64,000 nucleotides of DNA from an uncultured Gemmatimonadaceae bacterium (GCA_963790305.1 CAWBOC010000007.1:160001-224000), one strand, 5' to 3'. Counted from the stretch's first letter, positions 4,151-58,932 are shown. The notes: generated by a model not told the origin, from the letters alone. Translations and numbers: made by a program.

Positions 4151-4225
4151 GACGAGTGGGGAGTGGAGAGTGGAGAGTGGGCGCTTCCCCACTCCCCACT
4201 CTCCACTCCCCACTCTCCACTCGCC
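4151..4225. repeat. Heptamer periodic palindrome (NGAGTGG)4-loop-(CCACTCN)5, empty copy
   Basis: Read directly; abuts the stop codon at 4228. Confidence 0.95.
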
Positions 4226-4227
4226 GT

Positions 4228-4917
4228 TCAGTACTTGACTTCGCACCCATACGGCTGTGTTTGCGAGACCGCAATCGGCCGGCCTGCCAGTCCTGAGTCG
4301 AGCGCGGCGCGGACGTAGTTCGTGGCGCCCGCTATGTCCTTGGCGCTCGACGTCTGCCGGTTGTCGATCGCACCGCTGTAGCGAAGCACACCCTGGGGAT
4401 CGATGATCGCGTATTGCGGCGTGTTGCGCGCTCCGTAAAGCCGTCCCAGCACGCCCGCTGTGTCGCGGATAATGGCAGTCGGCGCCGCGCCTTTCTTGCG
4501 AGCCATGTCGTCGGCCTTCTCCGCTGACGCGTACCCCTGTCTTCCCGGACCCGACGATACGACCGAGAGCCAGATTACCCCGCGCTTCGTGTACTCCTGC
4601 TGCATCGCCTGCGAGTTCCCGATTCCGTTCACAAGGGCGTAGTGCTTCTTGGTGTACGGGCATCCGTGGTTGAACCACTCGAGGACGACCCATTTGCCGG
4701 CGTAGTCGGCGAGCGAGTGCGATCTGCCGCGTGTATCGGCGGCCGTGAATGCCGGCGCGGGGCCGCCGACCGCCAAGAGCTCCGGCAGGCTCTCCGGGTC
4801 CGCGCTGGCGGCGATCCGGCGTGCGGCGACGGCGCCGACGAGCAACAGTGCAACGACGACAATGGCGAAGATGCGCAGCTTGCGGGATCGGGGTTTTGGG
4901 GGGGTCGTGTCAGTCAT
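4228..4917 (-). CDS. Redoxin / AhpC-TSA thioredoxin-fold protein
   Basis: VVLEWFNHGCPYTKKHY, YGARNTP, YSGAID, TQPYGCEVKY. Confidence 0.85.
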   Translation of the reverse strand: MTDTTPPKPRSRKLRIFAIVVVALLLVGAVAARRIAASADPESLPELLAVGGPAPAFTAADTRGRSHSLADYAGKWVVLEWFNHGCPYTKKHYALVNGIGNSQAMQQEYTKRGVIWLSVVSSGPGRQGYASAEKADDMARKKGAAPTAIIRDTAGVLGRLYGARNTPQYAIIDPQGVLRYSGAIDNRQTSSAKDIAGATNYVRAALDSGLAGRPIAVSQTQPYGCEVKY

Positions 4918-7181
4918 TGGGTTGTCTCTACGGAGGGTGACGATTCGATCCGGTCGCTCTTCGACGCGGCCAATGTTCGGACTCCGGACGGCAATGCCGC
5001 CGCGCGTTCGAGCGCGCCGATCACGATGCCGGAGGTAAGCAGTGTGGGCAGGATGATGGGCGCAGCATCTCGCGCTCGAGGGTAGATGACGACGAAGGGC
5101 ACACTGGTGCGCCCGAATGCGGCGAGCGCGCGCGTGACGACGGAGTCGCGGGTGGTCCAGTCGGCGCGCAGCAGCGCGACGTCGTGATCACGAAGTGCCG
5201 TGCGAACTGCTTTCAATGCGAAGGCGACGCGCTCGTTGACTTTGCACGTTAGGCACCAGTCCGCCGTAAAGTCGAGCAGGACGATCCGATTAGTGTCGCG
5301 CTGTGCGGCCAGCAGCTCCGCGCTGTACGGCCTCCATCCCAGCGCATCCTCGCCCGTGCCTGGCGACGTCTCCCTCCCCAACTGCACGACCCCCTGGTCC
5401 GATGCACTGTGCGCGCTCGCATTCGAAACGAGCGCAAGCGCGCCGACGGCCGACGCGAGCGCGAACAGTCGTGCGAGCCGACGGCGCCCCGTCGGCTCCG
5501 CGATGGTGCCGAACCGGCCGAGCGCCCATAGCCCGAATGCGAGCAGGGTGCACGCGGCGAGCAGGGCGACCAGCGCGCTCACGCCGGCCTGCCGGCCGAG
5601 CACCCAGGCAAGCCACACGACGGTTGCGAAGAGCGGGAAGGCAAGCACCTGGCGGAGCGTGACCATCCAGGCGCCCGGCTTCGGCAACCATGCACGCAGG
5701 CGTGGGACTGCTGCGACCAGTGCAAGCGGCCAGATAAGGCCGAGCCCCAGCGCGGTGAACACGACGAACGACTCGACCGCTCCTGTCGTGACCGCGTATG
5801 CGACCGCCGCCGCGAGGAATGGGGCGGAGCATGGCGTCGCCAGTGCAGTGACGAGCACGCCGCCCATGAATGCATCGACGCTGCGCGGTGCACGGCTCGC
5901 CGCGGTAGAGAGACTCCCCCCGACAGGCACGAGGTCGAACACGCCAGCCATGTTGAGTCCCGCCGCGAAGATGAGCAGTGCGAGCGCGCCCACGACTGTG
6001 GGACTCTGCAGCTGGTAGCCCCATCCGACTTGGGTGCCCGCCGCGCGGAGGGCGAGCAGCACACTCACGAGCACCCACATCGACACGAGCACGCCGCTCG
6101 CGAACAACAGCACGTGCTGCCGCGCTGCCCGCTCGTCGTGTGCGGCCGCCTGCGCAATCCCGAACGTCTTGATCGAGAGCACCGGCAGCACGCATGGCAT
6201 CAGGTTCAGAAGCGTCCCGCCGAGCAGGGCGAACAACGCAGCCGTCAGCAGCGCCCCCACGGAGATCGGGCTCGAGTCCACCGCGCTCAGACCAACCGCG
6301 CTGCGAGCGTCACCTAACGACGGTGCCACCGGTGCGACGATCTCGACTGCGCGATTCGCGCGAGCGCCGATGCTATCAGCGTTCCCGAAGACGACGACAC
6401 CCGACACACGACCGGGTGCGCCGTTCGCGTACTCGGACCGCCGGATGCGCAGCTCGACGAGCGAGTCGACCCAGCGGGCGCGGACCGGCGCGCCGTGATC
6501 GATCACGCCAGCACTGTCCACGAAGAAGTCGATCGCCGCGGTCCGGCTCGGCCGTGCTTCGGACGGCGGGCGCGCGTACAGGATAACGTCCGACGAGTCG
6601 ACTGCCGCGATCGTCGTCCAACCATCCTGGGGCCATGGCGTGCGCTGCCGTTCGGCAATGAGGGCGTTCATCACAGTCGAATCGACCGCCGCACGTACGG
6701 CCACCGGGCGGGCGATCGACAGATCGACGTCGTCCGCGATGCACTCCTCTGCGCAAACGACCCACGTGATTCGGCCCGCGATGCGAGCTGTCGACCCGAC
6801 CCGCGCACTTCGCGGCACCTCGATGGGCGCGGCGAGAAAGAGCTCACGCTCGTACCCATAGCTCGCGAGCGGCGGGGAAGAAATCCGGTGCGGAGCGGGC
6901 CACCTGAACGACCCCGCCTTCCATCCCGACGGAAGGTCCCACACGACGCTCGGCGCGCTGCCGACATCACCCGCGTAGCGCCAATAGGTATGCCATCCGT
7001 GGTTAGGCTCGAGCCGCACGGCAACCCATGTCGTCTCGCCGGGAACGACAGCACGGGCGGCGCTGACGAGCTCCACTTCGATGGGCCGTGCCTCGGTGGC
7101 AGGTACCATCGATGGGGCCTGCGCGTGCGCGCTTGCCGCGAAGAGGACGAGGAAAGCAGCTCGTCCCGCAGGGGATCTCAT
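4914..7181 (-). CDS. dsbD: Protein-disulfide reductase, DsbD family
   Basis: WHTYW N-domain with CAEEC; TM NLMPCVLP and TPCSAPF; C-terminal thioredoxin WCLTC. Confidence 0.88.
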   Translation of the reverse strand: MRSPAGRAAFLVLFAASAHAQAPSMVPATEARPIEVELVSAARAVVPGETTWVAVRLEPNHGWHTYWRYAGDVGSAPSVVWDLPSGWKAGSFRWPAPHRISSPPLASYGYERELFLAAPIEVPRSARVGSTARIAGRITWVVCAEECIADDVDLSIARPVAVRAAVDSTVMNALIAERQRTPWPQDGWTTIAAVDSSDVILYARPPSEARPSRTAAIDFFVDSAGVIDHGAPVRARWVDSLVELRIRRSEYANGAPGRVSGVVVFGNADSIGARANRAVEIVAPVAPSLGDARSAVGLSAVDSSPISVGALLTAALFALLGGTLLNLMPCVLPVLSIKTFGIAQAAAHDERAARQHVLLFASGVLVSMWVLVSVLLALRAAGTQVGWGYQLQSPTVVGALALLIFAAGLNMAGVFDLVPVGGSLSTAASRAPRSVDAFMGGVLVTALATPCSAPFLAAAVAYAVTTGAVESFVVFTALGLGLIWPLALVAAVPRLRAWLPKPGAWMVTLRQVLAFPLFATVVWLAWVLGRQAGVSALVALLAACTLLAFGLWALGRFGTIAEPTGRRRLARLFALASAVGALALVSNASAHSASDQGVVQLGRETSPGTGEDALGWRPYSAELLAAQRDTNRIVLLDFTADWCLTCKVNERVAFALKAVRTALRDHDVALLRADWTTRDSVVTRALAAFGRTSVPFVVIYPRARDAAPIILPTLLTSGIVIGALERAAALPSGVRTLAASKSDRIESSPSVETTQ

Positions 7182-7303
7182 GTATTTGACAGACAGAAGG
7201 CGCAGCTGTTCACGTGGGACTCAAGCCTAATGCCGAGAGCAGCAAACAGGCGACGACGGAGCCGGTAGGCGGCCTGATTTGGCGACGAGCGGATCGTTCT
7301 GGC

Positions 7304-7373
7304 GACGAGTGGCGAGTGGCGAGTGCCGAGTGGGGAGTGGGGAGTGGGGAGTGGGAGTGGGAGTGGGGAGTGA
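7304..7373. repeat. Heptamer array (NGAGTGG) x10, left arm upstream of the four-helix-bundle gene
   Basis: Read directly; starts GACGAGTGG like the 4151 copy; two units are 6 bp. Confidence 0.95.
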
Positions 7374-7456: not shown

Positions 7457-7852
7457 ATGAGAGTCCGGAGCTACCAAGATCTCGTGGTTTGGCAAAGAGC
7501 CGTCGATTTTGTCGCCGAGATTTACCGCATCAGCGCCAGATTTCCGCGTGAAGAGCAGTTCGGACTCACCGCGCAGGTGCGCAGGGCCAGCGTGTCCGTC
7601 TCCGCCAACATTGCAGAAGGCTCCGGTCGGGCAACGAGCCGCGATCTCTTGAACTTCCTAAGCCACGCCCGAGGCTCCTTGAAAGAGGCGGAGTCGATGG
7701 TGTTCGTTGCCCAACGCCTTGGGTTTGTGAGCGCTGCAGATTGCACCGAAGCCTTGCGCCTCGCCGACGAAACGAGCCGCATGCTAGCTCGACTGCGAGT
7801 CGGTATTGCGAGGCGCACTCCCCACTCCCCACTCCGCACTCCCCACTGGTGA
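7457..7852 (+). CDS. Four-helix-bundle protein (23S rRNA intervening-sequence protein / Avd-like fold)
   Basis: SYQDLVVWQRA...FPREEQFGLTAQVRRASVSVSANIAEGSGR...ARGSLKE signature. Confidence 0.9.
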   Translation: MRVRSYQDLVVWQRAVDFVAEIYRISARFPREEQFGLTAQVRRASVSVSANIAEGSGRATSRDLLNFLSHARGSLKEAESMVFVAQRLGFVSAADCTEALRLADETSRMLARLRVGIARRTPHSPLRTPHW

Positions 7853-7872
7853 CGAGTGGGAGTGGGGAGTCA
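7815..7872. repeat. Inverted heptamer arm (CCACTCC) x5 overlapping the gene 3' end, followed by a short GACGAGTGG arm
   Basis: Read directly; encodes the tail TPHSPLRTPHW*. Confidence 0.93.
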
Positions 7873-7931: not shown

Positions 7932-9914
7932 ATGAAAGCGTGCATGATGGGCGGTTTCGCGATCCTTCTGCTCTGCGTCGGCGTCGGCCACGCTCAACAA
8001 TCGTCTCAGCTACAGGTCGGAACGCCGGTACGCGCGACGCTGGCAGCGAACGACACGCTCCGATACGTGCTGAACTTGCCGAAGAAGCACTTCGTCGCCG
8101 GCCGAGTTGATCAGGACGGGGTGGACGCGACGGTGACGATCACGGGCCCGGCGGGCAGGCGGGTGCAGCGAGCGGCGCGCGTCGGGCGAGGCGGTCCGGA
8201 GACGTTTGCATTCGCGACGGACACGGCGGGGGGTGGCCGGTACGTGATCGAGGTGGCGCCAGCGACGACCGGGAAAGGGGGCGCCGTGCGCGTGCAGCTC
8301 ACGCGTTCCGGGCCGGTCGCGACCACACCTGAAGGCAAGGTGGACCAGGCCGCCGCACAATTGTACAAAGACACTCCAGGAGCCGTGGTAGGAGTGATCA
8401 AGGGTGGCAAGCTGGCATTCGTGAAGGGATATGGCGCCGCGGATCTGACGTACGGGATGCCCTTCACGGCAGAGACGCCGACGAACATCGGTTCCTCGTC
8501 GAAGCAGTTCACCGGGTTCGCACTCGCCCTGCTGGCATCGCGAGGCAAACTCTCTCTGGACAATGACGTGCGGAAGCACATTCCCGAGCTCAAAGACTTC
8601 GGCAAGAAGATCACCGTGCGTCATCTTCTCTCGCACACCACCGGCTACCGCGAGTTCATCAACACGCTGATCATCGACGGACGTCAGGTGCTGGAGGGGG
8701 ATTACATCGCTCCGGACGAAGCCATCAGGGTGATCAACCGGCAACCGACGCTGCAGAATGAGCCTGGCGCGGAGTTCAACTACAACAACTCGGCGTTCAG
8801 CCTGGCGACCATCGTGGTGGAGCGAGTCACCGGCCGCCCATTCGCGGAGTGGATGCGCGAAGAGGTCTTCCTGCCCCTGGGCATGACGAAGACGTGGGTG
8901 CGCGCGAATCCGGGGCAGATCATACCGAAGCGATCGATTGGCTACATCGCGGGCGACTTCGGTTTTCGCGAGGTGCGCGATCTCCACGGTTCCGCGGGCG
9001 CCGGCGGCATTTATACGACACCGGGCGACGTCGCAAAGTGGATGCACAATTTCAAGACCGGAGAGCTGGGGGGACCGGCGCTCATCAAGGAGATGACGAC
9101 GTCGTTCGTGCTGAACGACGGGAAGCCATCGAACTACGGTTACGGTGTGTTTCTCGACTCGACCCGCGGTGTGCGGCGGTGGCAGCACGGCGGCAACGAT
9201 ATCGCGCACAGTTCCACGTTCGTGTACTACCCCGACCTCGACGCCGGTTACGTCGTGTTCAGCAACTACCAGGGCGTGCCCGGCGGAATCGCGGGTGTCG
9301 TGGCCGACGCCTTCTTTGGTCAGCATATGAGGGCACCCCAACTCGCGAGCGCGACCTCGGGGGGAAGCGTCGACGTGCCTGCTTCTACCCTACGGCGCTA
9401 TGCCGGTAAATACGAGATGACGACACTCGGCGGCATGCTGCTCACTGTGGAACTGCAGGGCCGCGAGCTGCAGCTGCAGGTTCCGGGACAGCCGGCGCTC
9501 CCGCTGCGTCCGACGTCCATGACCTCGTTCGAAGTGGTCGGTGCGCCGGCGCGAATCACCTTCAACACGGCCGCGGACAGCGCAGTGGAGGGGATCACCT
9601 TCCAGCAAGGCGGGGAGCACCCCGGCCGACGCGTCGTAGAGAAACCGCCGGCGGACCTCAGCATCTTCGCTGGTCGCTATTTCAGCGAGGAGCTCGAGAC
9701 GTACTATGACTTGAGCGTCGAGGACGGGAAACTCGTCATCCGGCACCGTCGTTTCGGGCCGGTAACGCTGACGCACACCAGTGGGGATTCCTTCTCCGGA
9801 CCGTTGCCCGTGACGCAGGTCGCCTTCCGCCGCGATGCGGACGGCAATGTCACGGGATTTGACGCCGGCAACGGAAGGGCACGCGGGATCCTGTTCAAGA
9901 AAGTCAGCCGGTAG
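7932..9914 (+). CDS. Secreted serine hydrolase, class C beta-lactamase-like, with extra N- and C-terminal domains
   Basis: SSSK (SxxK), YNN, HGG motifs; LLSHTTG; signal peptide. Confidence 0.85.
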   Translation: MKACMMGGFAILLLCVGVGHAQQSSQLQVGTPVRATLAANDTLRYVLNLPKKHFVAGRVDQDGVDATVTITGPAGRRVQRAARVGRGGPETFAFATDTAGGGRYVIEVAPATTGKGGAVRVQLTRSGPVATTPEGKVDQAAAQLYKDTPGAVVGVIKGGKLAFVKGYGAADLTYGMPFTAETPTNIGSSSKQFTGFALALLASRGKLSLDNDVRKHIPELKDFGKKITVRHLLSHTTGYREFINTLIIDGRQVLEGDYIAPDEAIRVINRQPTLQNEPGAEFNYNNSAFSLATIVVERVTGRPFAEWMREEVFLPLGMTKTWVRANPGQIIPKRSIGYIAGDFGFREVRDLHGSAGAGGIYTTPGDVAKWMHNFKTGELGGPALIKEMTTSFVLNDGKPSNYGYGVFLDSTRGVRRWQHGGNDIAHSSTFVYYPDLDAGYVVFSNYQGVPGGIAGVVADAFFGQHMRAPQLASATSGGSVDVPASTLRRYAGKYEMTTLGGMLLTVELQGRELQLQVPGQPALPLRPTSMTSFEVVGAPARITFNTAADSAVEGITFQQGGEHPGRRVVEKPPADLSIFAGRYFSEELETYYDLSVEDGKLVIRHRRFGPVTLTHTSGDSFSGPLPVTQVAFRRDADGNVTGFDAGNGRARGILFKKVSR

Positions 9915-14567: not shown

Positions 14568-14597
14568 CGAAGTAACGCGGGGCCAAGCGCTTGAAAG

Positions 14598-14670
14598 TTG
14601 CCCCTCCTGGGCTCGAACCAGGACTCTCCTGATCCAGAGTCAGGCGTGTTGCCAGTTACACCAAGGGGCA
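14598..14670 (-). tRNA. tRNA-Gln (CTG)
   Basis: TGCCCCTTGGTGTAACTGGCAACACGCCTGACTCTGGATCAGGAGAGTCCTGGTTCGAGCCCAGGAGGGGCAA cloverleaf; CCA not encoded. Confidence 0.95.
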
Positions 14671-14767: not shown

Positions 14768-16077
14768 GTGTTTTCGAGTCGCCCTGCGGCGTTGTCGCTG
14801 CTTCTTCTGCCCTTCGCGGTCGCGTGTCGTGAGGCTGTTCCTGCCCTGGGAACTACCCCAGATCGCGCGACTCGCCACGCCTCGATCATGCTCAACGCGC
14901 TCGCCGATCGCTTTGGTGTCGTCGAGCTCTCACCCGAAATCGCGACGACGCGCCCGCGGCTCGCCCGGTACAGCACCACTCCGTCGCGACTCGTCGACGA
15001 CACGGAGTCTATGGACGAGTCGTGGCGAGGATGATCGCACGATCGAGATCGCCGGTGCGCGACGCGCCGGGCGTTACACCCTCTTTCATCATCCAGGCGC
15101 GCCCCCGCCTCGCGATCCAGGGGAGGCGCGACATGTCATGCGTCTCCAGATCCTCGGCGACGACGAGTTCCGGTGGACGTCCGTCGACGAGGTCGCACTC
15201 GGAGCGATCACCATCGCCGACCTCGACCGCGCACTGACCGCCGATTCTTCTCGTCGCCGAGCAAGGTGATCCAGCAGCCGCGCGCGTCGCGACACGCATC
15301 GCTTTTCCACGAGCATCGGCGTCGTTGTCGCGCATGTTCGTCATCGATTCCGTTCGCGCGTCGCGCAGCGCCGATGGTGCGACATCGGTGGTTCTCGGTC
15401 TCGGGCTGAGGCCAGGTCAGGCGGAGCGGCACTTCCAGTCGCTGGGTCCCTACGCGCGCAAGTATTGGGTGCCGATTCGTTGGCGCATGAGTGTCGAGGA
15501 CTCACTCGGAACACGCTGGGGTGAGTTCACCAAGCGCGATTCCTCGATCGTTCTCCGGTTTCGAGTGCACGAGGGATCGCTGGCACCCTTTGGCGCGCCG
15601 CCGCGTCGCGTCGGGGCGCACCTGCGCCTAACTGCTGACGCGTCGGTGAAGGTGGGACCGTTCCGCGTGGGCGTACGCAATCTGGACGGGCGTGTGCTGC
15701 GGTTGGCCGACCGCGATCACCTCGCGATGGCTCTTCGCTTTTCCACCGAACCGGAATGGCAGCTGCCGCCACTAGTCGCACGACTGCTGCGCTCCCCGCT
15801 CCGCCGTCCCTTCGAGGGCGGGGGCGCCCTCATGCGCTATGGCGTGCGCACCGACGCGCAGCCGGACGATACGGTATCGACGGTATGGCGCGACATCAAT
15901 GTCACCGTGCGCGAAAGCGGAATCCTCCGCTTTTTCGGTCGCCTCGGCGGTACCGCACTCGGCGATTTTCGACAAGGCGCCGAGAAGGAGGCGGAGCAGT
16001 TGTGGGAGGAGTCGCTGCGAGGCCTGGCGGCCGACGTGGCCGGTCGCGAATGCGGAATTCGGAATGCGGAATGTTGA
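14768..16077 (+). pseudogene. Hypothetical lipoprotein broken by two apparent +1 indels (about 15008 and 15241)
   Basis: FAVAC lipobox in 14768-15034; protein-like frame continues SLWTSRGEDD...LDRALT, then AILLVAEQG into ORF 15325-16077. Confidence 0.6.
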
Positions 16078-16113
16078 TTCAAACACTTCCGGATTCCGCA
16101 TTCCGCCTTCGAC
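16043..16113. repeat. Heptamer periodic palindrome (GGAATGC)n-loop-(GCATTCC)n
   Basis: Read directly; left arm overlaps the last codons (ECGIRNAEC*) of the upstream gene. Confidence 0.92.
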
Positions 16114-16123: not shown

Positions 16124-16157
16124 AAAAAGAAAACGCCGCGGATGTTGATCCGCGGCG
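16124..16157 (-). terminator. Intrinsic terminator, minus strand
   Basis: CGCCGCGGAT-CAAC-ATCCGCGGCG followed by TTTTCTTTTT. Confidence 0.85.
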
Positions 16158-16159
16158 AT

Positions 16160-16350
16160 TGCCTCATTCGATCGAGCGAGGGGTATGCCTCGCGCGCCGT
16201 CATTGGAACTCTGCGTCCTACCGAGCGGCGGCGGGCAACCCATTCAAAGTGGGTTGACCGAATCTCTTCATTGGAACTCTACGTCCTACCGAAAGAGACC
16301 GGCAACCGAGTCGAGTGTCGGCGCAACCACTAATTCAGGTTGCATGCCAG
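16160..16350 (-). ncRNA. Candidate structured ncRNA between tRNA-Ala and the terminator
   Basis: Two 25-nt near-identical motifs (16200-16224, 16268-16292), each closed by a different basal stem, plus additional hairpins. Confidence 0.4.
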
Positions 16351-16354
16351 AAAA

Positions 16355-16427
16355 TGGAGCTGAGGGGGCTCGAACCCCTGACCTCCTGGGTGCGATCCAG
16401 GCGCTCTCCCAGCTGAGCTACAGCCCC
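16355..16427 (-). tRNA. tRNA-Ala (CGC)
   Basis: GGGGCTGTAGCTCAGCTGGGAGAGCGCCTGGATCGCACCCAGGAGGTCAGGGGTTCGAGCCCCCTCAGCTCCA; G3:U70 pair. Confidence 0.95.
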
Positions 16428-16888: not shown

Positions 16889-17851
16889 GTGTTCGCCGAC
16901 GTGACCGCCGACGATGTGCGACGCGCAGCGGAGCGCCTTCGCGACGTGGTTCGGCGAACCGAGCTCCGTCGCGCCCTCCGCCTGTCCGATCGCGTTCAGC
17001 GCGAGGTGTGGCTCAAGCTCGAGAACGCGCAGCTCACCGGCTCCTTCAAGATGCGCGGCGCATACAACGCCATCGCCTCGCTTCCACAATCCGAGAGAGG
17101 ACGCGGTGTGGTCACCGCGAGCGCGGGTAACCACGGCCGCGGCGTTGCGCTCGCCGCGCAACGATTCGGCATTCGCGCGTTGATCTTCGTGCCGCGAACG
17201 GCGCCGCGCGTGAAGATCGAAGGGATGCGAGAGTGCGGCGCGTCGATCGACGCGGACTCCGCGCATTACGATGAAGCGCACGCGCGCTCGGTGGCGTTCG
17301 CGAATGAGCACCACGCCGTCTACCTCGATCCATGCGTCGGCACCCCGCTCGTTGCCGGCCACGGTACGGTCGCTCTCGAGATCATCGATCAGCTGCCGAA
17401 CGTCGGCTCGGTCATCCTCCCAGTGGGCGGCGGTGGCCTGCTCGGGGGAATGGGCGCATTTCTCCGGGCGACGAAGCCCGAGGTGCGCATCGTCGGTGCG
17501 CAGAGCGTGAACACGAGCGCGATGGCGCGCTCGCTCGAAGCAGGACATCTCGTCGATGTCCCGGTGATGCCAACCCTCGCCGATGGCCTCGCGGGCGCGA
17601 TCGATGCGCACGGGCTCGACGTCGGCCGACACGCACTCGATAGAATGGTGGTGGTCGAGGAAGCAGACGTTGCCCGCGCGATCGCCTTTCTCGCCCGGGA
17701 AGAGGACGTCACGGCCGAGGGGTCCGGAGCGGTTGGAGTGGCTGCGCTACTTGCGGGGTTGGCGGACGACGTGGTCGATCCCGTCGTCGTGGTAATCAGC
17801 GGCGGGAACATCGACTCGGACGTCTTCGAGCGTGTCAAAGGGCAGCGGTAG
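16889..17851 (+). CDS. PLP-dependent threonine/serine dehydratase
   Basis: LKLENAQLTGSFKMRGA, SAGNHG, PVGGGGL, SGGN; GTG start uncertain. Confidence 0.88.
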   Translation: MFADVTADDVRRAAERLRDVVRRTELRRALRLSDRVQREVWLKLENAQLTGSFKMRGAYNAIASLPQSERGRGVVTASAGNHGRGVALAAQRFGIRALIFVPRTAPRVKIEGMRECGASIDADSAHYDEAHARSVAFANEHHAVYLDPCVGTPLVAGHGTVALEIIDQLPNVGSVILPVGGGGLLGGMGAFLRATKPEVRIVGAQSVNTSAMARSLEAGHLVDVPVMPTLADGLAGAIDAHGLDVGRHALDRMVVVEEADVARAIAFLAREEDVTAEGSGAVGVAALLAGLADDVVDPVVVVISGGNIDSDVFERVKGQR

Positions 17852-17930
17852 CCGAGGTCGTCAAGGTCGTCGAGGAGATCAAGGTGACTTCGCCTCGATC
17901 ACCTGGACCACTTCGACGACCTCGACTACC
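17847..17930. repeat. 9-bp periodic palindrome, copy 1
   Basis: GGTAGCCGA GGTCGTCAA GGTCGTCGA GGAGATCAA ... CCTCGATCA CCTGGACCA CTTCGACGA CCTCGACTACC; contains the upstream TAG. Confidence 0.92.
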
Positions 17931-22310: not shown

Positions 22311-22398
22311 GGCGGTCGAGGTAGTCGAGGTCGTCCAGGTCAGCGAGGAAGTGCAGTTTCCTCGATCACCTGGACGACCTCGATCACATCGACTACCT
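22311..22398. repeat. 9-bp periodic palindrome, copy 2 (between convergent genes)
   Basis: GGTAGTCGAGGTCGTCCAGG ... CCTCGATCACCTGGACGACC...CGACTACC. Confidence 0.92.
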
Positions 22399-28605: not shown

Positions 28606-29496
28606 GTGCCGATCTCGACGCCGGCGGTGCGCTCGATGACTCGCACGGCCTCGACGTGATCGGCCTCTTCGCCGAGCTCCGCGCGCGCGGCATGAAACAG
28701 CTCCGACGCGAGCTGCGTGAGCGGCGCCGGCAACGCCGGCCTCCCGGGCCATATCGGCGGCGATTCGAAGGTCCTTCTCGAGCAGCGCGAGACGGAAGGT
28801 GCGCGGAAACGCACGAGACAGCACACGCTCGGGGAACAGGTTCATGCTCGTGTTGGATCGTCCGCTCGAGGTGTTGATGACGTCGAGGGCGATGCGCGTA
28901 TCGACCCCGGCCTTCGCCAGCGTCGCCAGCCCTTCGCCTGTTGCCCAGATGTGGATGGCGAGCAGCGCCTGATTGACCGCCTTCACCATGTCCCCTGCCC
29001 CGACGTCCCCGCAGTGCACGATGTTCTTTCCGAACGAAGCGAGGATGGGGCGAATACGCTCGACGACGGCGACATCGCCTCCGCACATGACGGTGAGCGT
29101 CCCCTCCTCCGCGCCGCGCTTTCCGCCACTCACCGGCGCATCGACGAACGCGACGCCGCGCTCGAGAAGGCGTGACGCAATGCGACGTGACGTCACGGGA
29201 TCGCCGGAGGTGCAATCGACGAGCGTGGCGCCGCGGCGGAGTCCGGCGAGCAAGCCATCGTCACCATCGAGCAGGCCCTCGACCTCGCGCGACGTCGGCA
29301 GGCAGGTAATGACCACATCCGATTCACGCGCCGCGTCGGCAGGCGTCCGCGCGACGCGTGCGCGCACCGACTTCGCCAATCGATCGGCCCGCTCGCGCGT
29401 ACGGTTCCAGACGACGAGATCGAAACCGTGGGCCGGCAGGTGCTGAGCCATGGGCGCGCCGATGGCGCCGAGGCCGAGAAAGGCGATGGTGGGCAT
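28602..29496 (-). pseudogene. 3-hydroxyisobutyrate-dehydrogenase-family oxidoreductase with a frameshift near 28730 (apparent fusion to the next gene)
   Basis: GLGAIG, DAPVSGG, VKAVNQ; natural C-terminus PAPLTQLASELF...GVEIGT* is in another frame and ends in an ATGA overlap. Confidence 0.8.
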
Positions 29497-29540
29497 GGGA
29501 GGCGGCAAGTTGGCGCATCGCGGGGTCGGGGGCCAGAGGC

Positions 29541-29580
29541 CGAATGCGGAAAGCGGAATGCGGAATGCGGAATGCGGATT
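29541..29580. repeat. (GGAATGC)n left arm
   Basis: CGAATGCGGAAAGCGGAATGCGGAATGCGGAATGCGGATT. Confidence 0.93.
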
Positions 29581-29613: not shown

Positions 29614-29849
29614 ATGCGGACGACGCTCCGTCTCGATCTTCCTTCCATCCACGCCGTGCGCGCGGTCTACACAGCGCTGCAAGGCATCGAGGGCATCGCG
29701 CGGGCCGACGTGTCACGGCGCGGGGCGACCATCGAGCATGATGGCGGAGCGACTGCGGAGCGGCTCCGCCATGCCGTCGCGCAACCGCTGGGTATGAGGT
29801 CCTCGAGATCCACGAGGAACGACGGCGACTGACCGTGAGAGACGACTAG
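29614..29849 (+). CDS. Small HMA-fold-like protein lacking CxxC; frameshift near 29780
   Basis: LPSIHAVRAVYTALQGIEGI; the alternative frame gives an HMA-type end ATAGYEVLEI. Confidence 0.55.
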
Positions 29850-29910
29850 ATGCGAAAATGCGGATCGCCGTTGTCGGCAATCCGCATTCCGCATTCCGCA
29901 TTCCGCATTC
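29849..29910. repeat. Short G-arm plus (GCATTCC)n right arm
   Basis: 29879-29910 is the reverse complement of the last 32 nt of the left arm with 1 mismatch. Confidence 0.92.
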
Positions 29911-31111: not shown

Positions 31112-32482
31112 ATGGCATCCCCGAAGGAAGAGCGACCGGTCGCGGCGCTGCTCGCCCCCGACATCCTGGCGCTGCTCGATGAATCGCCGGCCGATGTCGC
31201 GGCCGAGACCGAAGAGCTGCATCCCGCCAATCTCGCCGACATCGCCGAGGCGCTGCCTCGCGAGCGCCTCGCGCAGCTCATGCGCGCGCTTCCCGCGGCG
31301 CGGGCGGCCGATGTGCTCGAGTATCTCGACGAGGAGCTGCGATCGGAGCTGCTCGAGGAGCTGAGCGCGCGGCAGGCGGCCGAGCTGGTGTCGCAGATGA
31401 CACCGGACGATCGTGCCGACGCACTCGAGGATCTCGAGGAGGGGCGCGCCGACGAGATCCTTTCGGAAATCGCCGGCGACGCGCGGGGGGAGACCGAGCG
31501 GCTGCTGGCGTACGAGCCGGACACTGCCGGTGGCCTGATGACGACGGAGGTCGTCGCGGTCCCGGACGCCGCCTCGGTCGACGCCGCGCTCGAGAGCGTT
31601 CGAGCCGCCGCCCGCGCGGGACGGAGGGAGGCGATGTACGCCATCTACGCACTCGATGCTACGGGTGTGCTCCGCGGTGTATTCTCGCTGCGCGAGCTGC
31701 TCGCCGCTCCACCGGGGTCGCGCGTGTCCGACATCTCGTGGCACGACGTCGTCAGCGTGCCCCCCAGCGCGGATCGCGAGGAGGTCGCGCGACTCACCTC
31801 GAAGTACGATCTCGTCGCCGTCCCTGTAGTCGACCCGAATGGTCGGTTGCTCGGCGCCGTTACCGTCGATGACGTCATCGACGCGATCGTCGAGGAGCAG
31901 ACGGAGGATGTGCAGCGACTCGGCGCCGTCGAGCCGCTCGAGGCGCCCTACTTTCAGGCGAGCTTCTGGAGCATCGCGCGCAAGCGGGCGGGGTGGCTGG
32001 TGCTGCTGTTCTTCGCCGAGCTGTTGACGGCGACGGCGATGGCGCGATACGAGGCGACGCTTGCCGGCGCGCTCGCGCTGGTGTTCTTCGTCCCGCTCAT
32101 CATCAGCTCGGGGGGAAACTCGGGCTCCCAATCAGCGACCCTCATCACGCGAGCCCTGGCCGTGGGTGATGTCGAGCTGCGCGACGCGTTGCGGGTCCTC
32201 ACGCGCGAAGGCCTCCAGGGACTTGCGCTCGGCACGTTCCTCGGCGCGTTCGGATTCATCCGCGTCATCCTGGGCGGAGAGCCCATCGCGTTTGCGCTGG
32301 TCGTCAGCGTGACCCTGCTCGCCGTCGTCATCACCGGTACGCTCGTCGGCGCGACGCTGCCGCTCGTGTTCACGCGACTGGGCTTCGATCCCGCGATCGC
32401 GTCCTCTCCGTTCGTGGCATCGTTCGTCGATGTGGTGGGGATCCTGATCTATTTCTCGGTGGCGACGTGGCTGCTTGCTTGA
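31112..32482 (+). CDS. mgtE: Magnesium transporter MgtE
   Basis: HPANLA, TAGGLMT, CBS pair, SGGNSGSQ, DPAIASSPFV..VDVVG. Confidence 0.93.
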   Translation: MASPKEERPVAALLAPDILALLDESPADVAAETEELHPANLADIAEALPRERLAQLMRALPAARAADVLEYLDEELRSELLEELSARQAAELVSQMTPDDRADALEDLEEGRADEILSEIAGDARGETERLLAYEPDTAGGLMTTEVVAVPDAASVDAALESVRAAARAGRREAMYAIYALDATGVLRGVFSLRELLAAPPGSRVSDISWHDVVSVPPSADREEVARLTSKYDLVAVPVVDPNGRLLGAVTVDDVIDAIVEEQTEDVQRLGAVEPLEAPYFQASFWSIARKRAGWLVLLFFAELLTATAMARYEATLAGALALVFFVPLIISSGGNSGSQSATLITRALAVGDVELRDALRVLTREGLQGLALGTFLGAFGFIRVILGGEPIAFALVVSVTLLAVVITGTLVGATLPLVFTRLGFDPAIASSPFVASFVDVVGILIYFSVATWLLA

Positions 32483-32582
32483 GGTAGTCGAGGGTGTCGA
32501 GGAGGTCGAGGTAATCGAGGTGCAGGTGATCGAGGATGAAGTTTCCTCGATCACCTCGACATCCTCGACACCCTCGACTTCC
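32481..32582. repeat. 9-bp periodic palindrome, copy 3
   Basis: GAGGTAGTCGAGGGTGTCGAGG...GGTGATCGAGG ... CCTCGATCACCT...; overlaps the mgtE TGA. Confidence 0.92.
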
Positions 32583-32622: not shown

Positions 32623-33033
32623 ATGACTACGGTTCAGCGCGTCGCCCAGATCTTCGGCATCGTGTTTCTCGTGGTGGCGCTGTATGGCTTCACGCAGACG
32701 GGCATGGGCAACATGGAGTCCGACCCCGCTCGCGCGCCCCAGCTCCTCGGGCTGTTCGCGGTGAACGTGCTCCACAATGTGGTGCACCTGTTGTTCGGCA
32801 TTTGGGGGCTGGTCGCGTCGCGCACGTTCAGCGGCGCCAAGAGCTACGCCCAGATCGCGGGCGTGCTCTACCTGGTCCTGGCCGTCGCCGGCTTCATCGT
32901 GCCTAACGGGTTCGGCCTCGTCCCCCTGGGCGGCAACGATGTCTGGCTGCATCTCGTTCTCGGGCTCGTCCTCGCCGGCGTGGGGTTCACGGCGCGCGAG
33001 CTACGCCCGCCGGTGGTGGCGTCGCCGGTTTGA
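32623..33033 (+). CDS. DUF4383-family membrane protein
   Basis: LLGLFAVNVLHNVVHLLFG, DVWLHL; GGAGG RBS. Confidence 0.8.
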   Translation: MTTVQRVAQIFGIVFLVVALYGFTQTGMGNMESDPARAPQLLGLFAVNVLHNVVHLLFGIWGLVASRTFSGAKSYAQIAGVLYLVLAVAGFIVPNGFGLVPLGGNDVWLHLVLGLVLAGVGFTARELRPPVVASPV

Positions 33034-33036: not shown

Positions 33037-33115
33037 CGAGGTAGTCGAGGTCGTCAAGGATGTCGAGGTGATCAAGGTGACGTCACCTCGATCACCTCGA
33101 CACCCTCGACTACCT
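33037..33115. repeat. 9-bp periodic palindrome, copy 4 (between convergent genes)
   Basis: GAGGTAGTCGAGG...GGTGATCAAGG ... CCTCGATCACCT...CCTCGACTACCT. Confidence 0.92.
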
Positions 33116-36794: not shown

Positions 36795-38795
36795 TCAGGG
36801 GGAGAAAGGCAACGGGGGTCGCGCGACGCGCGACCCCCGTTGTTTCATCAGAATGAGCGCAGCGGCCTTTTCGCTGCGCCTTTCCGCCCCTGATCCCTGA
36901 CTCCTGACTCCTGACCCCTCGTCGGAAGCTTTCTCGCTCGCACCAACCATTCCGACAATTCCTTCCTCTAGCCACGCATGCTCTCCCTTCAGCACGCGCT
37001 GAGAGACCTTGTAGAGACGGTCGTCGTTGGGGCCAAAGAAGTCACGGAAATGTTGCGCAATGCGATGCCGCGCCTCGAGGCAGAACAGGTCGGCTAGCTC
37101 GACTGCTTCCTTGCGGCCCTGCTTCTTCGCCAGCATGTGCGCGCGCGAGCAGCTCGCGGACATCGCGAACAGCTCCGCTCCAATGTCGACGGCGCGGAAG
37201 AGAACCATCTGCTTGCGCTCGAGCTTCGGGCCGAACCGCACCATGGCGTGAAAGATCGCGCGCGACAACCTCCGTGACGTGCGCTCGGCGTAGCGCATGT
37301 GCGTCGCCAGACGTCCGAACTCGCCGAAGCGCGGCCAGCGGCCCCACCCGACCCACCGCGTCGGGTACCAGGTGGCGTAAAAGGCCCCTGCCTTGGCGAA
37401 GGCGGAGAGCTTCTTCGAGAGAGGGACATCCTTCTCGATGATGTCACCAGCCACCTTCAGGTGCGTGTCCACCGCCTCACGAGCGATGAAGAGGCGCATG
37501 ATCTCCGACGATCCCTCGAAGATCAGGTTGATGCGGTAGTCTCGCATCGCCCGCTCGACCGGAATCGGCGCCTCGCCACGGCTCTCCAGCGACGCGGCGG
37601 TCTCGTACCCGCGCCCACCGCGGATCTGGAGCGTCTCATCGACGATCCGCCATCCGGCCTCGGTATTCCACATCTTGGCGATGGCCGCCTCGAGCCGAAT
37701 GTCGTAGCCACCGCGATCGGCCATCGCGCTGCACAGCTCGGCCACCGCCTCCATGGCGAACGTATTGGCGGCCATTTTCGCCAGCTTCTGCGCAATCGCC
37801 TCGTGCTTGCCGATCGGCTGCCCCCACTGCACGCGCTCCGCCGCCCACGTCCGCGCCACTTGCAGCATCGCCTTGGCACCACCCGCGGCGCTCGCCGGCA
37901 GCGTCAGACGGCCGGTGTTGAGGGTGATGAGCGCAAGCTTGAGCCCCTTCCCTTCTCCCCAGAGAATGTTCTCCCGCGGGACTTTGACGTTCGTGAAGCG
38001 GATGACGCCGTTCTCGAGCGCCTTGAGGCCCATGAAGTGCAGCCGCTGTACGACCTCGACGCCAGGCGCCTTCGCTTCGACGATGAACGCGGTGATCTGC
38101 TTGCGCGGCTTTCCGTTGACGATCGCGTCGGGAGTGCGCGCCATGACGACGAGCAGCTCGGCGCGCGTGCCGTTCGTGCACCACAGCTTCTCACCGTTGA
38201 GGATGAAGTGCTTGCCATCCGCGGTCGGCGTCGCCGTCGTGCGCATGTTCGCCGGATCGCTGCCGGCGTCGACCTCGGTGAGGGCGAACGCCGAGATCGC
38301 TCCCTTGGCGAGACGCGGGAAGAACTTCTTCTTCTGCTCGTCGGTCCCGAACAGCTTGAGCGGGTTTGGGACGCCGATGGATTGATGCGCGGAAAGCAGG
38401 GCGGTGAGCGAGCCATCCTTCGACGTGACGATCTCCATCGCGCGGATGTAGCTCATCTGCGAAAGACCGAGCCCGCCATATTCGCGCGGAATCTTGATGC
38501 CGAAGGCACCCATGTCGCGCAGCTCCTGCACGAGCGGCTCGGGAATGTGGCCGGTCCGATCGATCTCGTCGGAATCGACACGCTCCATGAACGCGCGCAG
38601 CTTGTCCATGAACGGCTTCGCGCGCGCGACCTCGGCCGGATCGTCTTCCGGGTGCGGGTGAATCAGCTCGGGGCGATAGCTCCCGAGAAAGAGATCGCGC
38701 ACGAAGCTCGGCTCGCGCCATTCGCTCTCGCGCGCCGCCTCGGCGACATCGCGGGCTTCCTTCTCGGTCGCGAGCGCCTGCGTCGAATCAGCCAT
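36795..38795 (-). CDS. Acyl-CoA dehydrogenase (long type)
   Basis: AFALTEVDAGSD, NGEKLWCTNG, LQIRGGRGYE, IFEGSSEI; extreme C-terminus uncertain. Confidence 0.9.
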   Translation of the reverse strand: MADSTQALATEKEARDVAEAARESEWREPSFVRDLFLGSYRPELIHPHPEDDPAEVARAKPFMDKLRAFMERVDSDEIDRTGHIPEPLVQELRDMGAFGIKIPREYGGLGLSQMSYIRAMEIVTSKDGSLTALLSAHQSIGVPNPLKLFGTDEQKKKFFPRLAKGAISAFALTEVDAGSDPANMRTTATPTADGKHFILNGEKLWCTNGTRAELLVVMARTPDAIVNGKPRKQITAFIVEAKAPGVEVVQRLHFMGLKALENGVIRFTNVKVPRENILWGEGKGLKLALITLNTGRLTLPASAAGGAKAMLQVARTWAAERVQWGQPIGKHEAIAQKLAKMAANTFAMEAVAELCSAMADRGGYDIRLEAAIAKMWNTEAGWRIVDETLQIRGGRGYETAASLESRGEAPIPVERAMRDYRINLIFEGSSEIMRLFIAREAVDTHLKVAGDIIEKDVPLSKKLSAFAKAGAFYATWYPTRWVGWGRWPRFGEFGRLATHMRYAERTSRRLSRAIFHAMVRFGPKLERKQMVLFRAVDIGAELFAMSASCSRAHMLAKKQGRKEAVELADLFCLEARHRIAQHFRDFFGPNDDRLYKVSQRVLKGEHAWLEEGIVGMVGASEKASDEGSGVRSQGSGAERRSEKAAALILMKQRGSRVARPPLPFSP
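36810..36846. terminator. GC-rich hairpin between convergent genes, likely a terminator
   Basis: CAACGGGGGTCGCGCG / CGCGCGACCCCCGTTG followed by TTTC. Confidence 0.7.
36887..36920. repeat. Heptamer array (CTCCTGA)n inside the dehydrogenase tail
   Basis: CCCCTGA TCCCTGA CTCCTGA CTCCTGA CCCCTC; translates EGSGVRSQGSG. Confidence 0.85.
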
Positions 38796-49437: not shown

Positions 49438-50025
49438 ATGTCGACCTATCCCACCCCCGCGGCGGTCCGCCCAACGGCAATGCCGCCGCTGAACCTGGCG
49501 AAGCTCACGGCGGTATTTCGCGGCCGCTCCATCGCCGCGGCCGTCGACGCCATCTGGGTGCCCGCGGTTGCGGCGACGCTCATTGTCGTCGCCGGCGCCG
49601 TCGGTCACTGGCTGAAACAGCCCTGGCTCTTCGCGGGTCTTGGCCCGACGGTCCTGATGCTCGCCAGCAATCCGGGTCATGAGACGACCCGCTTCCGCGC
49701 GGTGGTCACCGCCCACCTGGCGGCGATCGGCTGCGCCTACCTCGCGCTGCTGCTTCTGAACGCGAGTGGCGCGACGGCTGTCATTACGAGGGCGACCGTG
49801 CCGCTTCCGCGCGTGTGGGCCAGTGCCGCATCGCTGGCAATGCTCGCCATCCTGATGCCGCAGCTTCGCGCCTACCACCCGCCCGCTGCCGCCACGGCAC
49901 TTCTCGTGACGCTCGGCGCGTACCGGATGACCGGCAAGACTCCGCTGGCGTTGATGGCGGGCGTCGTCGCGGTCGCGGTCATGGCGGAAGTGCTTCACCG
50001 AGTGAAGCCAAGGAAGTCGAGGTAA
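49438..50025 (+). CDS. HPP-family membrane protein
   Basis: LGPT, HPPAAATALL. Confidence 0.82.
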   Translation: MSTYPTPAAVRPTAMPPLNLAKLTAVFRGRSIAAAVDAIWVPAVAATLIVVAGAVGHWLKQPWLFAGLGPTVLMLASNPGHETTRFRAVVTAHLAAIGCAYLALLLLNASGATAVITRATVPLPRVWASAASLAMLAILMPQLRAYHPPAAATALLVTLGAYRMTGKTPLALMAGVVAVAVMAEVLHRVKPRKSR

Positions 50026-50104
50026 TCGAGGGTGTCGAGGTGATCGAGGTAACGTCGTTGCCTCTCCTCGATCACCTCGACGACCTGGACAACCTCGATC
50101 ACCT
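50011..50104. repeat. 9-bp periodic palindrome, copy 5; contains the stop codons of both convergent genes
   Basis: TAA 50023-50025 in the left arm, TCA 50099-50101 in the right arm; core GGTGATCGAGG / CCTCGATCACCT. Confidence 0.92.
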
Positions 50105-54731: not shown

Positions 54732-54773
54732 CGGCCGATTCCATCGCGGTGGTCCGCCCGACATCTTCCATGG

Positions 54774-55494: not shown

Positions 55495-55887
55495 ATGCGC
55501 CCGTCCCCTCTCGTCGCCCTTACGCTCTTGCTGTTCGTCACGGCTGCGTGCGCTTCGTCCGGGCCAGGGACCCGAACTTCGGGCCGCCGCGACACCCGGG
55601 TGTTGAGCGCCGAAGAGATCAGGGCCGCCTCCGCATCGACCATGTACGACGTGATTCGCTCGCAACGCCCGGAATGGTTGATCAAGCGCGGGCAGACGAG
55701 CATCAACATGGAAGGCGACATCGTGGTCTACGTCGACAACGTGGCGCTCGGCGGCCCCGAGTCGCTGAAGAGCATCAATGTCCAGAGCGTGCAAAGCGCG
55801 CGATTTCTCAACGCGTCCGAGGCGCAGATGCGCTACGGCGTGGGGCACATGCACGGGGCGATCGTGGTGGTGACGCGAACCTCGTAG
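55495..55887 (+). CDS. Lipoprotein with a TonB-receptor plug-like domain
   Basis: TAAC lipobox; VYVDN, A..RYG....GAIVVVT. Confidence 0.7.
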   Translation: MRPSPLVALTLLLFVTAACASSGPGTRTSGRRDTRVLSAEEIRAASASTMYDVIRSQRPEWLIKRGQTSINMEGDIVVYVDNVALGGPESLKSINVQSVQSARFLNASEAQMRYGVGHMHGAIVVVTRTS

Positions 55888-55982
55888 GTCGTCGAGGTTG
55901 TCGAGGTCGTCAAGGTGATCGAGGAGAAGCGATGCCGTTCCTCGATCACCTCGATGACCTGGACGCCCTCGACCACCTCGGG
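55886..55982. repeat. 9-bp periodic palindrome, copy 6 (between convergent genes)
   Basis: AGGTCGTCGAGGTTGTCGAGGTCGTCAAGGTGATCGAGG ... CCTCGATCACCTCGATGACC... Confidence 0.92.
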
Positions 55983-58185: not shown

Positions 58186-58200
58186 TCGGGCACTCCCGAA

Positions 58201-58243
58201 GAAAAGGCGCGGGGCAGCCGGCTGGCTGCCCCGCGCCTTTTTT
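58201..58243 (+). terminator. Intrinsic terminator (possibly bidirectional)
   Basis: AAAAGGCGCGGGGCAGCC-GGCT-GGCTGCCCCGCGCCTTTTTT. Confidence 0.88.
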
Positions 58244-58309
58244 GCGCCGGTCCTGGAATTGCGCGCCGATCGTGAAGTATGCACGTTGTCATGGACAACG
58301 GAGGGAGTC

Positions 58310-58861
58310 ATGAGCCACCACGAGGAACGCGCGCCCGACGACGCGCTTCGGAACCATCCCCTGCGAGACACGCAGGAGTTCGCGAGCGATATCCGTATTC
58401 GTGAGGCATCGGTCGACGAGCCCCGCGTGGGCGCCGCCGGTGCCGTGGGCGGCGCGGGTGGAGCGCTCGCGGGCGCGGGGATCGGCACCATCGTCGGCGG
58501 CCCGGTGGGCGCCATCATCGGCGCGATCGCCGGCGCCGTTGGCGGTTGGTGGGCGGGCCAGGCGGCGGCCGATCCCGCGACGACCATCACGCCTGAGGAC
58601 GAGGCCCGCTACCGCTCGCTGTACGAGCAGTCGCCGAATCGGCTCGCCGACCGTTCGTACGAGGATGTACGACCGTTTTACCACCTGGGCCACGTCGCCA
58701 GGAACAACCCCGACTACCAGAAGCGCGCCTTCGAGGAGATCGAGTCCGACCTGGAAAAGGGCTGGACGCCAGACCTCCGCGCGCGGTATGGCGAATGGGT
58801 CTACGCACGACAGTACGCGCGGGAGGCGTTTACGGGGAGAGAGCGGGCCGACGAGGATTAG
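58310..58861 (+). CDS. Glycine-zipper domain protein
   Basis: GAVGGAGGALAGAGIG..VGGPVGA.IGA; GGAG RBS. Confidence 0.75.
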   Translation: MSHHEERAPDDALRNHPLRDTQEFASDIRIREASVDEPRVGAAGAVGGAGGALAGAGIGTIVGGPVGAIIGAIAGAVGGWWAGQAAADPATTITPEDEARYRSLYEQSPNRLADRSYEDVRPFYHLGHVARNNPDYQKRAFEEIESDLEKGWTPDLRARYGEWVYARQYAREAFTGRERADED

Positions 58862-58932
58862 CGGAATACGGAGTGCGGAATGCGGATTGATGTGGTGTCC
58901 AAATAGTTTCCGCATTCCGCATCCCGCATTCG
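58861..58932. repeat. Heptamer periodic palindrome, GGAATGC family (between convergent genes)
   Basis: GCGGAATACGGAGTGCGGAATGCGGATT ... TTCCGCATTCCGCATCCCGCATTCG. Confidence 0.92.

Follow-up and report, generated by a model that had tools for sequence, protein, structure and literature searches.

Periodic hairpins and an FHB cassette in the window

The stretch analysed here (the window) is a segment of 64,000 nucleotides from an uncultured Gemmatimonadaceae bacterium (GCA_963790305.1 CAWBOC010000007.1:160001-224000), and the subject is a set of dispersed hairpins whose inverted arms are built from short tandem words, together with a small four-helix-bundle (FHB) gene located between two such arms. 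An earlier note on this DNA had listed arrays of period 7 or 9 and proposed a cassette system with empty and filled copies. All 14 window coordinates listed there carry period-7 or period-9 tandem arrays, and genome-wide such arrays occur far beyond chance. The source genome (G000; 4.31 Mb, 13 contigs, 94% complete) was compared with congeners, among them G004, G005 and G008; one unpublished genome was excluded from every count.

The filled copy belongs to family D7 (word GAGTGGG). Its left, purine arm (7304..7372, plus strand) pairs with the right, pyrimidine arm (7816..7847, plus strand) in the fold of the whole cassette (z = -2.6), and an Avd-like FHB gene (7457..7852, plus strand) lies in these arms, with its last codons read through the right one. 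Profile searches assigned the protein to TIGR02436 (E = 7e-32, above the cut-off) and to PF05635, IVP (E = 1.5e-34), and 2GSC/XCC0516 was matched with an E value of 4.5e-22. This is the sole D7-armed FHB gene seen among the nine genomes of the genus; at the same site in G005 and G008 the FHB gene is missing and a Y1 transposase gene is present instead. The latter (PF01797; L014:10661-11407 in G008, L019 in G005), which resembles the transposases associated with repetitive extragenic palindromes (REP-associated tyrosine transposases, RAYTs), has inverted ends of its own of about 35 bases, and a remnant of the D7 left arm persists at the G005 site. A short purine-type D7 array after the right cassette arm (7848-7872) produces a hairpin of the rare pyrimidine-then-purine order.

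Ten gene-less sites of the window fold as long hairpins (z = -5.6 to -10.2). The one at 4148..4225 (z = -10.2) has the same D7 word as the cassette arms, and no two-sided orthologue of it was present among the congener regions compared. Family A7 (GCGGAAT) is found at 16047..16111 (E7 in G005 and G008) and at 58861..58931 (J9 in G005, no hairpin in G008); the supposed hybrid word at 58870 is a one-base variant. Family J9 (GAGGTNNTC) is found at 17849..17930 (the 7-base C7 in G005; G008 not comparable), 22311..22398 (J9 in G008, the sister word K9 in G005), 32481..32582, where it overlaps the mgtE stop codon (J9 in G005 and G008), 33037..33115 (J9 in G008, K9 in G005), 50011..50104, between convergent genes (F7 in G005, I9 in G008), and 55886..55980 (L9 in G005, J9 in G008). 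The B7 element (GTCAGGR) at 36795..36919, first described as a single arm at 36887, is really a complete element whose left arm has decayed and whose inner part has a four-way fold, and a minus-strand acyl-CoA dehydrogenase frame crosses it. The inner module, also present in many B7 and G7 elements, is a four-way junction with covarying stems, which occurs in either orientation and is common to the arms of both families.

Three small genes had been reported as enclosed or bracketed by arms. This holds for the FHB gene, whereas the other two, HMA-like and DUF4383, are resident host genes. A lone A7 purine arm (29542..29578, plus strand; other words here in G005 and G008) lies upstream of the HMA-like gene (29614..29850, plus strand; frame-broken in the assembly, end approximate), the product of which shows a weak match to CopZ (E = 8e-4, under the cut-off), and an A7 hairpin with a short left and a full right arm is located at 29855..29910 (a complete G7 hairpin in G005). 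The DUF4383 gene (32623..33033, plus strand; PF14325, E = 1e-30) is conserved in place between the J9 hairpins at 32481 and 33037, which are two separate, complete hairpins and not a bracketing pair; the arms that face the gene run pyrimidine-then-purine. Both genes were rejected as cargo, since they are fixed in G000, G005 and G008 while the adjoining hairpins change.

Census and architecture in the whole genome

In G000, tandem arrays were found mainly at period 7 (n = 497) and period 9 (n = 478), compared with 21, 46 and 26 arrays at periods 8, 10 and 11, and inverted pairs numbered 184 and 101 at periods 7 and 9 against 0, 5, 0, 0 and 0 at periods 8, 10, 11, 12 and 13. A family-aware scan yielded 376 inverted arm pairs and 337 single arms with words of 7-10 bases, and 13 word families had at least five pairs each. 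The arms consist of purine-rich tandem words with no palindromic core of their own, and 636 of 752 contain 2.5-5.5 units. In close pairs the purine-rich arm came first 364 times and second in none. The polarity, though strong, has exceptions: when three congeners were scanned without regard to family, 90 pairs were purine-first and 6 pyrimidine-first.

Positional counts in G000 were made on genes called with a hexamer model made for this analysis. Nearly all close pairs (358 of 364) are outside the called genes, 200 of them in tandem, 120 in convergent and 38 in divergent gaps, and 6 are inside genes. Convergent gaps thus hold 120 of 364 elements, although they represent 286 of the 2114 gaps of at least 60 bases (the rest being 1342 tandem and 486 divergent). 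The contact with stop codons that had been claimed for nearly all arrays was confirmed for 287 of 440 stop-side element ends, located from -5 to +15 bases from the stop codon; it does not apply to the arms at 7304 and 29541, which lie between divergent gene starts. TAG accounts for 103 of the 251 stops abutting elements, as against 1004 of 3912 overall, as expected if stops often form at the junction with an arm starting with AG.

The consensus words of A7, J9 and I9 (215 of the 376 pairs) lack a run of three G, and variants of D7 and B7 have one, judging by sequence only. The loops of A7 elements are mutually nearly as unlike as shuffled ones (0.47 vs 0.42), and the arms stay near the family word. 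O9 elements have sharp, conserved inverted ends. Ordered word variants and inner modules are shared between distant loci.

Each word family has an FHB or a GxxExxY gene

Six FHB genes (TIGR02436 / PF05635) and four GxxExxY genes (TIGR04256 / PF13366) were identified in G000. All of them (6/6 and 4/4) are provided with periodic arms, each of a different word, and neither is a known transposase. The ten words correspond to 10 of the 13 families and to 353 of the 376 pairs, and the remaining families (E7, K9 and L9) form the arms of FHB genes in congeners. Each family comprises a master cassette (arms plus an FHB or GxxExxY gene) and tens of gene-less hairpins of the same word. A search for other cargo between same-family arms in G000 returned only FHB genes, GxxExxY genes, nested elements and an insertion sequence of the IS3 type in an O9 loop. 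Gene-bearing copies have the same terminal arms as gene-less elements, as seen for O9, M9, N9 and B7. The IS3-like element (two open reading frames (ORFs), judged by eye) lies in the loop of an O9 hairpin at C12:2440-3910 and C7:4640-6111; this is one locus present on two contigs, probably through an assembly overlap.

When the arm words were mapped onto a tree of 49 FHB sequences, sampled across the nine genomes of the genus, 14 changes sufficed for 15 word groups, which is the minimum (mean with shuffled labels, 37.3). The period-9 words formed one clade with the period-8 word as its sister, and A7, E7 and F7 formed a deep clade; several internal branches of this tree are weak. As far as these sequences indicate, the arm word follows the protein clade, which demonstrates linkage and not binding. 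The heptamers summarised as GGARTSN had been regarded as one drifting family. They go with three FHB clades, one of them split off by a 100/100 branch, and hence do not constitute a single family.

Both protein families showed dN/dS ratios (nonsynonymous to synonymous substitution) of 0.04-0.18 in the pairs with estimable dS, i.e. purifying selection. In the GxxExxY alignment the residues D, ExK and QxxxY, which we take to be the nuclease motif, are invariant across all 18 sequences. The predicted GxxExxY fold is PD-(D/E)XK, like that of the Cas4, RecB and Hjc nucleases, with Z scores under 8; the best match was Cas4 SSO0001 (Z = 7.8, rmsd 3.2, 96 aligned residues) and none reached Z 8, so that only the general fold is supported. 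No Foldseek match was obtained at E 0.001 and no PDB sequence match was found.

The association extends beyond the genus. Among the best 80 FHB loci from GTDB genomes, which represent at least 13 phyla, 53 are in inverted periodic arms (51 with period 7) and 20 more have one arm; as a control, the same test shifted by 900 bases was positive in 3 of 145. Twelve FHB genes were also observed on viral contigs, six of them with both periodic arms and three with one. These contigs are a possible vehicle of transfer, or host DNA in viral bins.

Copy numbers across the genus were then set against the genes present, in a tally that leaves out two FHB matches, in G002 and G007. Where a G7-armed FHB gene is present (five genomes), G7 arrays gave 47-150 matches, compared with 0-1 in each of the remaining four. 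G005 and G008 have both the F7 gene and abundant F7 arrays; A7 arrays are numerous in G000 and G006, which have the A7 gene, and also in G001, where it was not found. A rule by which genomes without FHB genes have no hairpins was uninformative, because counts were 0 in the FHB-poor G011 and G018 and equally in the FHB-rich G016 and G021. The idea that amplification in this genus followed from losing SbcD or Rho was discarded, since both genes were found alike in amplifying and non-amplifying genomes. Each of the five genomes searched contains two rho-like genes, one of them under the curated cut-off (C9:611411 and C10:132824 in G000).

Hairpins are replaced between congeners

Eleven sites of the window could be compared with G005. 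Six are occupied there by an unrelated or sister family, two by the K9 variant of J9 and two by the same family, and at the eleventh the FHB cassette is replaced by the Y1 transposase gene described above. The gap at 50011 holds three families in three genomes, and the F7 hairpin of G005 and the I9 hairpin of G008 each retain one outer J9 word.

The comparison was extended to about 0.45 Mb each of G004, G005 and G008, using long contigs chosen by hand, several of them for carrying an FHB gene. From 3129 gaps tried against each genome, 647 comparisons were obtained, which are not independent and include 45 distinct swapped slots. When the gap was occupied in G000 (n = 128), the relative had the same family in 59 cases, another family in 49 and none in 20; when it was unoccupied in G000 (n = 519), the relative was occupied in 41. 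This gives an odds ratio of 29 for occupancy, and of 22 in convergent gaps alone. The loops of swapped pairs are unrelated (similarity 0.23, compared with 0.25 after permutation), indicating that whole elements had been replaced; conversion of the arms in place around a retained loop was thereby ruled out. Swaps occurred inside one protein clade in 31 of 49 cases (11.9 expected from abundance), and 11 of 44 changed the period. Ordinary terminator-like hairpins adjoin several elements and are conserved while the element changes.

Traces of former occupants were also found. Words of another family just outside an element had the orientation predicted for an older arm in 12 flanks and the opposite one in 2, and at C8:110067 an L9 hairpin is enclosed in register by one J9 word on each side. 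Two O9 elements are nested in other hairpins, one at the tip of an E7 element and one inside a C7 loop. A preference of O9 for other hairpins was considered and dropped, as no enrichment accompanied these two clear nests.

Whole cassettes change place as well. Among the gaps listed are some with an empty hairpin in G000 that are occupied in congeners by an FHB or GxxExxY cassette of another family; the B7, I9, E7 and L9 cassettes are each found at two or three different sites, and at one master locus, where seven of the nine genomes carry an FHB gene, three different arm words occur. Filled and empty states of one element were also recovered: at slot 2368 the I9 arms that enclose no gene in G000 surround an FHB gene in G008. 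The orthologue of the window gene 58935-60434 in G017 has immediately upstream an FHB cassette armed with GGGCCCT (L024:1-570), at a place where G000 has no element.

According to the earlier note, the arrays would be simply slippage-expanded terminators or mRNA stabilisers if orthologous sites were invariant across relatives and no gene family were enriched inside the arms. The sites are not invariant, and FHB and GxxExxY genes are strongly enriched inside the arms, so neither observation speaks for that simpler view.

Enzymes looked for, and the level of action

RAYT/Y1 transposases were considered for the trans-acting factor, but the Y1 family PF01797 had no match in G000 (the control was matched in 6 of 14). 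Reverse transcriptase (PF00078) was not found in G000, either beside the FHB genes or elsewhere, nor in G004 or G008, and is present in two of the nine genomes of the genus. RNase III was not detected with PF00636 in any of 30 genomes of the order (control matched in 8 of 14) or with TIGR02191 in five (G000, G008, G009, G016 and G021); this failure to find it raises a question of its own about rRNA maturation.

A U-tract (TTTT within 15 bases after the 3' arm) was present at just 16 of 728 element ends, with which terminators lacking a U-tract may still be compatible. G-U pairs were not in excess on the sense strand (242 vs 225), and selection on the RNA strand was discarded for want of such a signal. 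Taken together, the results for U-tracts, G-U pairs, RNase III, reverse transcriptase and Y1 transposase point, without proof, to elements that act at the DNA rather than the RNA level. No target-site duplication was seen by eye in 19 O9 flanks and in alignments of present and absent states, where the relatives are 80-90% identical and short duplications could have decayed.

Other features of the window

Next to the cassette, 7932-9914 encodes a serine hydrolase of the beta-lactamase/penicillin-binding fold that falls under all curated resistance-family cut-offs. A single ORF (27376-29508) joins a hydroxyisobutyrate-dehydrogenase-like and a cysteine-desulfurase-like part, possibly a real fusion or an assembly indel. 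An Rfam search of the window returned tRNA-Gln (14597-14670) and tRNA-Ala (16355-16427) and nothing else, with no 23S rRNA gene around the cassette; further hairpins are present in the tRNA-Ala trailer (16124-16355).

Comparison with known systems

One of the closest published systems is that of REP doublets forming hairpins (REPINs), defined by Bertels and Rainey 2011 (PMC3116915), with REP cores in their Table 1. Both systems comprise hundreds of extragenic inverted doublets in several families per genome, each family flanking its own low-copy gene; in both, the distribution tracks the gene with exceptions and conserved gaps hold different families (here 49 of 128). In REPORTH (bioRxiv 2024.10.14.618302), 13 of 20 conserved gaps contained REPINs of more than one type, for which overwriting was suggested as RAYTs were exchanged. 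The gene is different, however, being here an Avd-like FHB or a Cas4/RecB-like nuclease and not an HUH Y1 transposase, of which none was found in G000. Our arms are tandem, non-palindromic words of fixed purine-first polarity, whereas the REP unit has a short palindromic core, and here the gene is enclosed by the arms and cassettes as a whole are located at different sites in congeners. The system thus works like REPIN-RAYT but is no member of it, having no RAYT and no palindromic REP core.

The intervening sequences (IVSs) of 23S rRNA that encode S23p/IVP, as in Coxiella, also have a PF05635 ORF in the loop of a long stem of terminal inverted repeats, and Warrier et al. (PMC4990558) noted that the Coxiella IVS ORF is preceded by heptamer repeats that vary in number. 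Unlike IVSs, the present cassettes lie between protein genes (the flanks of the six G000 FHB genes read as protein-coding sequence), their gene-less derivatives reach hundreds of copies, and RNase III was not found in the 30 genomes of the order. RNase III is the enzyme that excises IVSs. An IVS may be one such cassette that landed in an rRNA helix.

Rehm et al. 2015 (PMC4692102) reported heptamer repeats in Xanthomonas (GGGAATC) and Nostoc (GGGGA(C/T)T) and found no function for them. These are also tandem heptamers of about four units, in inverted convergent pairs, near stops and rare between divergent genes. In the supplement of that paper, repeat 15 covers the start codon of XCC0516, which is the solved FHB pentamer 2GSC; the overlap is unremarked in the main text, which mentions no helix-bundle gene. 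Those repeats were described as quadruplex-forming simple repeats, whereas A7, J9 and I9 have no G-tract, and there is one family per species there against at least 13 here. The short tandemly repeated repetitive (STRR) sequences of cyanobacteria are grouped with the heptamer repeats.

Diversity-generating retroelements (DGRs) have in Avd an accessory protein that is likewise a pentameric four-helix bundle binding structured nucleic acid, and the likeness of Avd and IVP is treated in PMC10053308. There is a difference in that no reverse transcriptase was found by the FHB genes or in G000. FHB proteins scored 21 bits against the bAvd profile (cut-off 40) and 27 against DivGenRetAVD (cut-off 80), and by these sequence scores FHB would be a homologue of Avd and not a member. 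Miniature inverted-repeat transposable elements and other non-autonomous derivatives of insertion sequences are also gene-less and share ends with a gene-bearing copy; here, in contrast, the gene-bearing copy has no known transposase, and elements replace residents rather than add to them.

GxxExxY proteins receive a single passing mention in bioRxiv 2021.01.26.428298. No paper was found that ties FHB or GxxExxY genes to dispersed periodic hairpins in a full-text literature search that had most subscription papers and all bioRxiv supplements outside its reach.

Discussion

The phenomenon is real, genome-wide and partly described: it follows the plan of a cognate gene plus non-autonomous palindromes, here with unrelated proteins. 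Words are paired with genes, cassettes move between sites, elements nest, and one family replaces another in the same gap. The cognate protein probably acts in trans on its own word. We give about an even chance to the fuller reading, in which these are REPIN-like elements served by proteins other than RAYT and the master cassettes drive the overwriting of hairpin slots by breakage and copying.

In such a process the resident hairpin would extrude as a cruciform and be cut near its tip by a structure-specific nuclease of the host or by GxxExxY. The two broken 3' ends would terminate in purine-rich word arrays, to which the cognate FHB pentamer would bind, promoting annealing to a dispersed element of the same or a similar word, and the inner part of the donor element (its loop or a whole gene) would be copied in. 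Annealing out of register would lead to variable word numbers, outer words of the old family would persist for a time, and junctions that leave the host gene a stop codon would be retained. After a change of master allele, the new family would gradually overwrite the slots of the genome. This model would account for the bias to similar words, the ragged word numbers, the outer remnants, the occurrence of both filled and empty copies and the fact that no target duplications were seen.

Several points weigh against this reading. Binding, cleavage and movement by FHB or GxxExxY proteins are what we infer throughout, to our knowledge no catalytic activity of FHB proteins has been reported, and the congruence of words and clades is equally expected from simple linkage of arms and gene. 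Families do not always follow their gene: G004 has 94 F7 matches with no F7 gene detected, G001 has an F7-armed gene yet A7 arrays (24 matches vs 3), and G001 and G002 have 66-71 B7 matches with no B7 gene detected. Four of the six FHB genes of G000 look frame-broken while their families are still abundant, although part of the breaks may be assembly error, as 19 of 502 genes are split overall. In other genera, G009, G016 and G021 have 11-13 FHB genes but 3, 0 and 0 empty periodic hairpins in 120-140 kb each, which indicates that the FHB gene is not sufficient. The divergence of A7 loops gives no sign of a recent burst of identical copies, and O9 elements show no enrichment next to hairpins of other families (5 of 19 vs 25%). 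Breakage and copying alone would leave unexplained the purine-first polarity, for which we suppose that the protein binds the purine strand, as well as the origin of new slots and the lineage-limited amplification of empty copies.

Some of these points are what a passive turnover would produce, in which the proteins serve their own cassette only and empty hairpins arise by deletion, then spread when the host recombines arrays that resemble each other. In certain gaps the host would retain one hairpin or another as a spacer or insulator, and families would drift while occupancy lasted. The FHB-rich genomes of other genera with few or no empty hairpins and the families that persist with their gene undetected or broken agree with this, and homology alone predicts the swap bias to similar words. 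Passive turnover is nevertheless doubtful, because G7 arrays are nearly confined to the five genomes with the G7 gene, a quarter of the swaps change the period, where homology is slight, and the arms hold to the family word while the loops diverge to near random.

It is also conceivable, if unlikely, that the partnership operates on RNA. Each FHB pentamer would then recognise its own word once the hairpin is transcribed and so adjust termination, read-through or decay at the 3' ends of genes, and families would turn over as the protein changes. The strong bias to stop codons and convergent pairs favours this possibility. All five protomers of the homologue Avd take part in binding an RNA stem-loop (bioRxiv 2023.10.23.563531), most of the Xanthomonas repeats are transcribed (PMC4692102), and with RNase III not found long stems would survive in mRNA. 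An RNA role sits badly with the lack of U-tracts and of a sense-strand G-U excess and with neighbouring terminator-like hairpins that are conserved while the element changes. It also leaves unexplained the arrival of whole elements with new loops, and the nuclease genes of the same design.

Copying through RNA, with a reverse transcriptase brought in by the Avd-like FHB protein to write hairpin RNA into target hairpins in the manner of DGRs, would fit the resemblance to Avd (bAvd, E = 4e-4, under the cut-off) and the highly diverged loops of the copies; it is very improbable, given that reverse transcriptase was not found in G000, G004 or G008, all of which show turnover. Slippage-grown terminators or stabilisers with no element behind them are hardly credible, and in their strict form are already refuted by the comparison with relatives: placement after stop codons, variable word number and the 83% of Xanthomonas repeats that retain their gene context between two species (PMC4692102) would agree with them, but the change from period 7 to 9 in the same gap, the unrelated loops, the nesting, the ordered word variants and inner modules common to distant loci, and the arms around ten out of ten FHB and GxxExxY genes do not.

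The empty heptamer pairs were already in print for Xanthomonas. What is added here is the pairing of ten families with their genes in one genome, the overwriting counted with controls, the allelic swaps at the master locus, the failure to find RNase III in the genomes searched, and the insufficiency of the gene alone. Breakage and copying by master cassettes would also admit a wider reading, which we advance tentatively and at less than an even chance: the FHB proteins of the IVP/S23p type and GxxExxY may be engines, each reading a word of 7-10 bases, of mobile DNA that has no transposase, recombinase or reverse transcriptase, with families competing for and overwriting fixed hairpin slots at the ends of genes, and rRNA IVSs, Xanthomonas heptamer pairs and cyanobacterial STRRs may be products of one process. 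The finding joins three loose ends, namely the role of the IVP/FHB and GxxExxY proteins, the origin of ORF-bearing rRNA IVSs and the abundance of dispersed heptamer repeats. With about 15 protein-word pairs, the genus provides a natural matrix for the study of specificity, and, if these proteins do move DNA, their chemistry would be unlike that of any known transposase.

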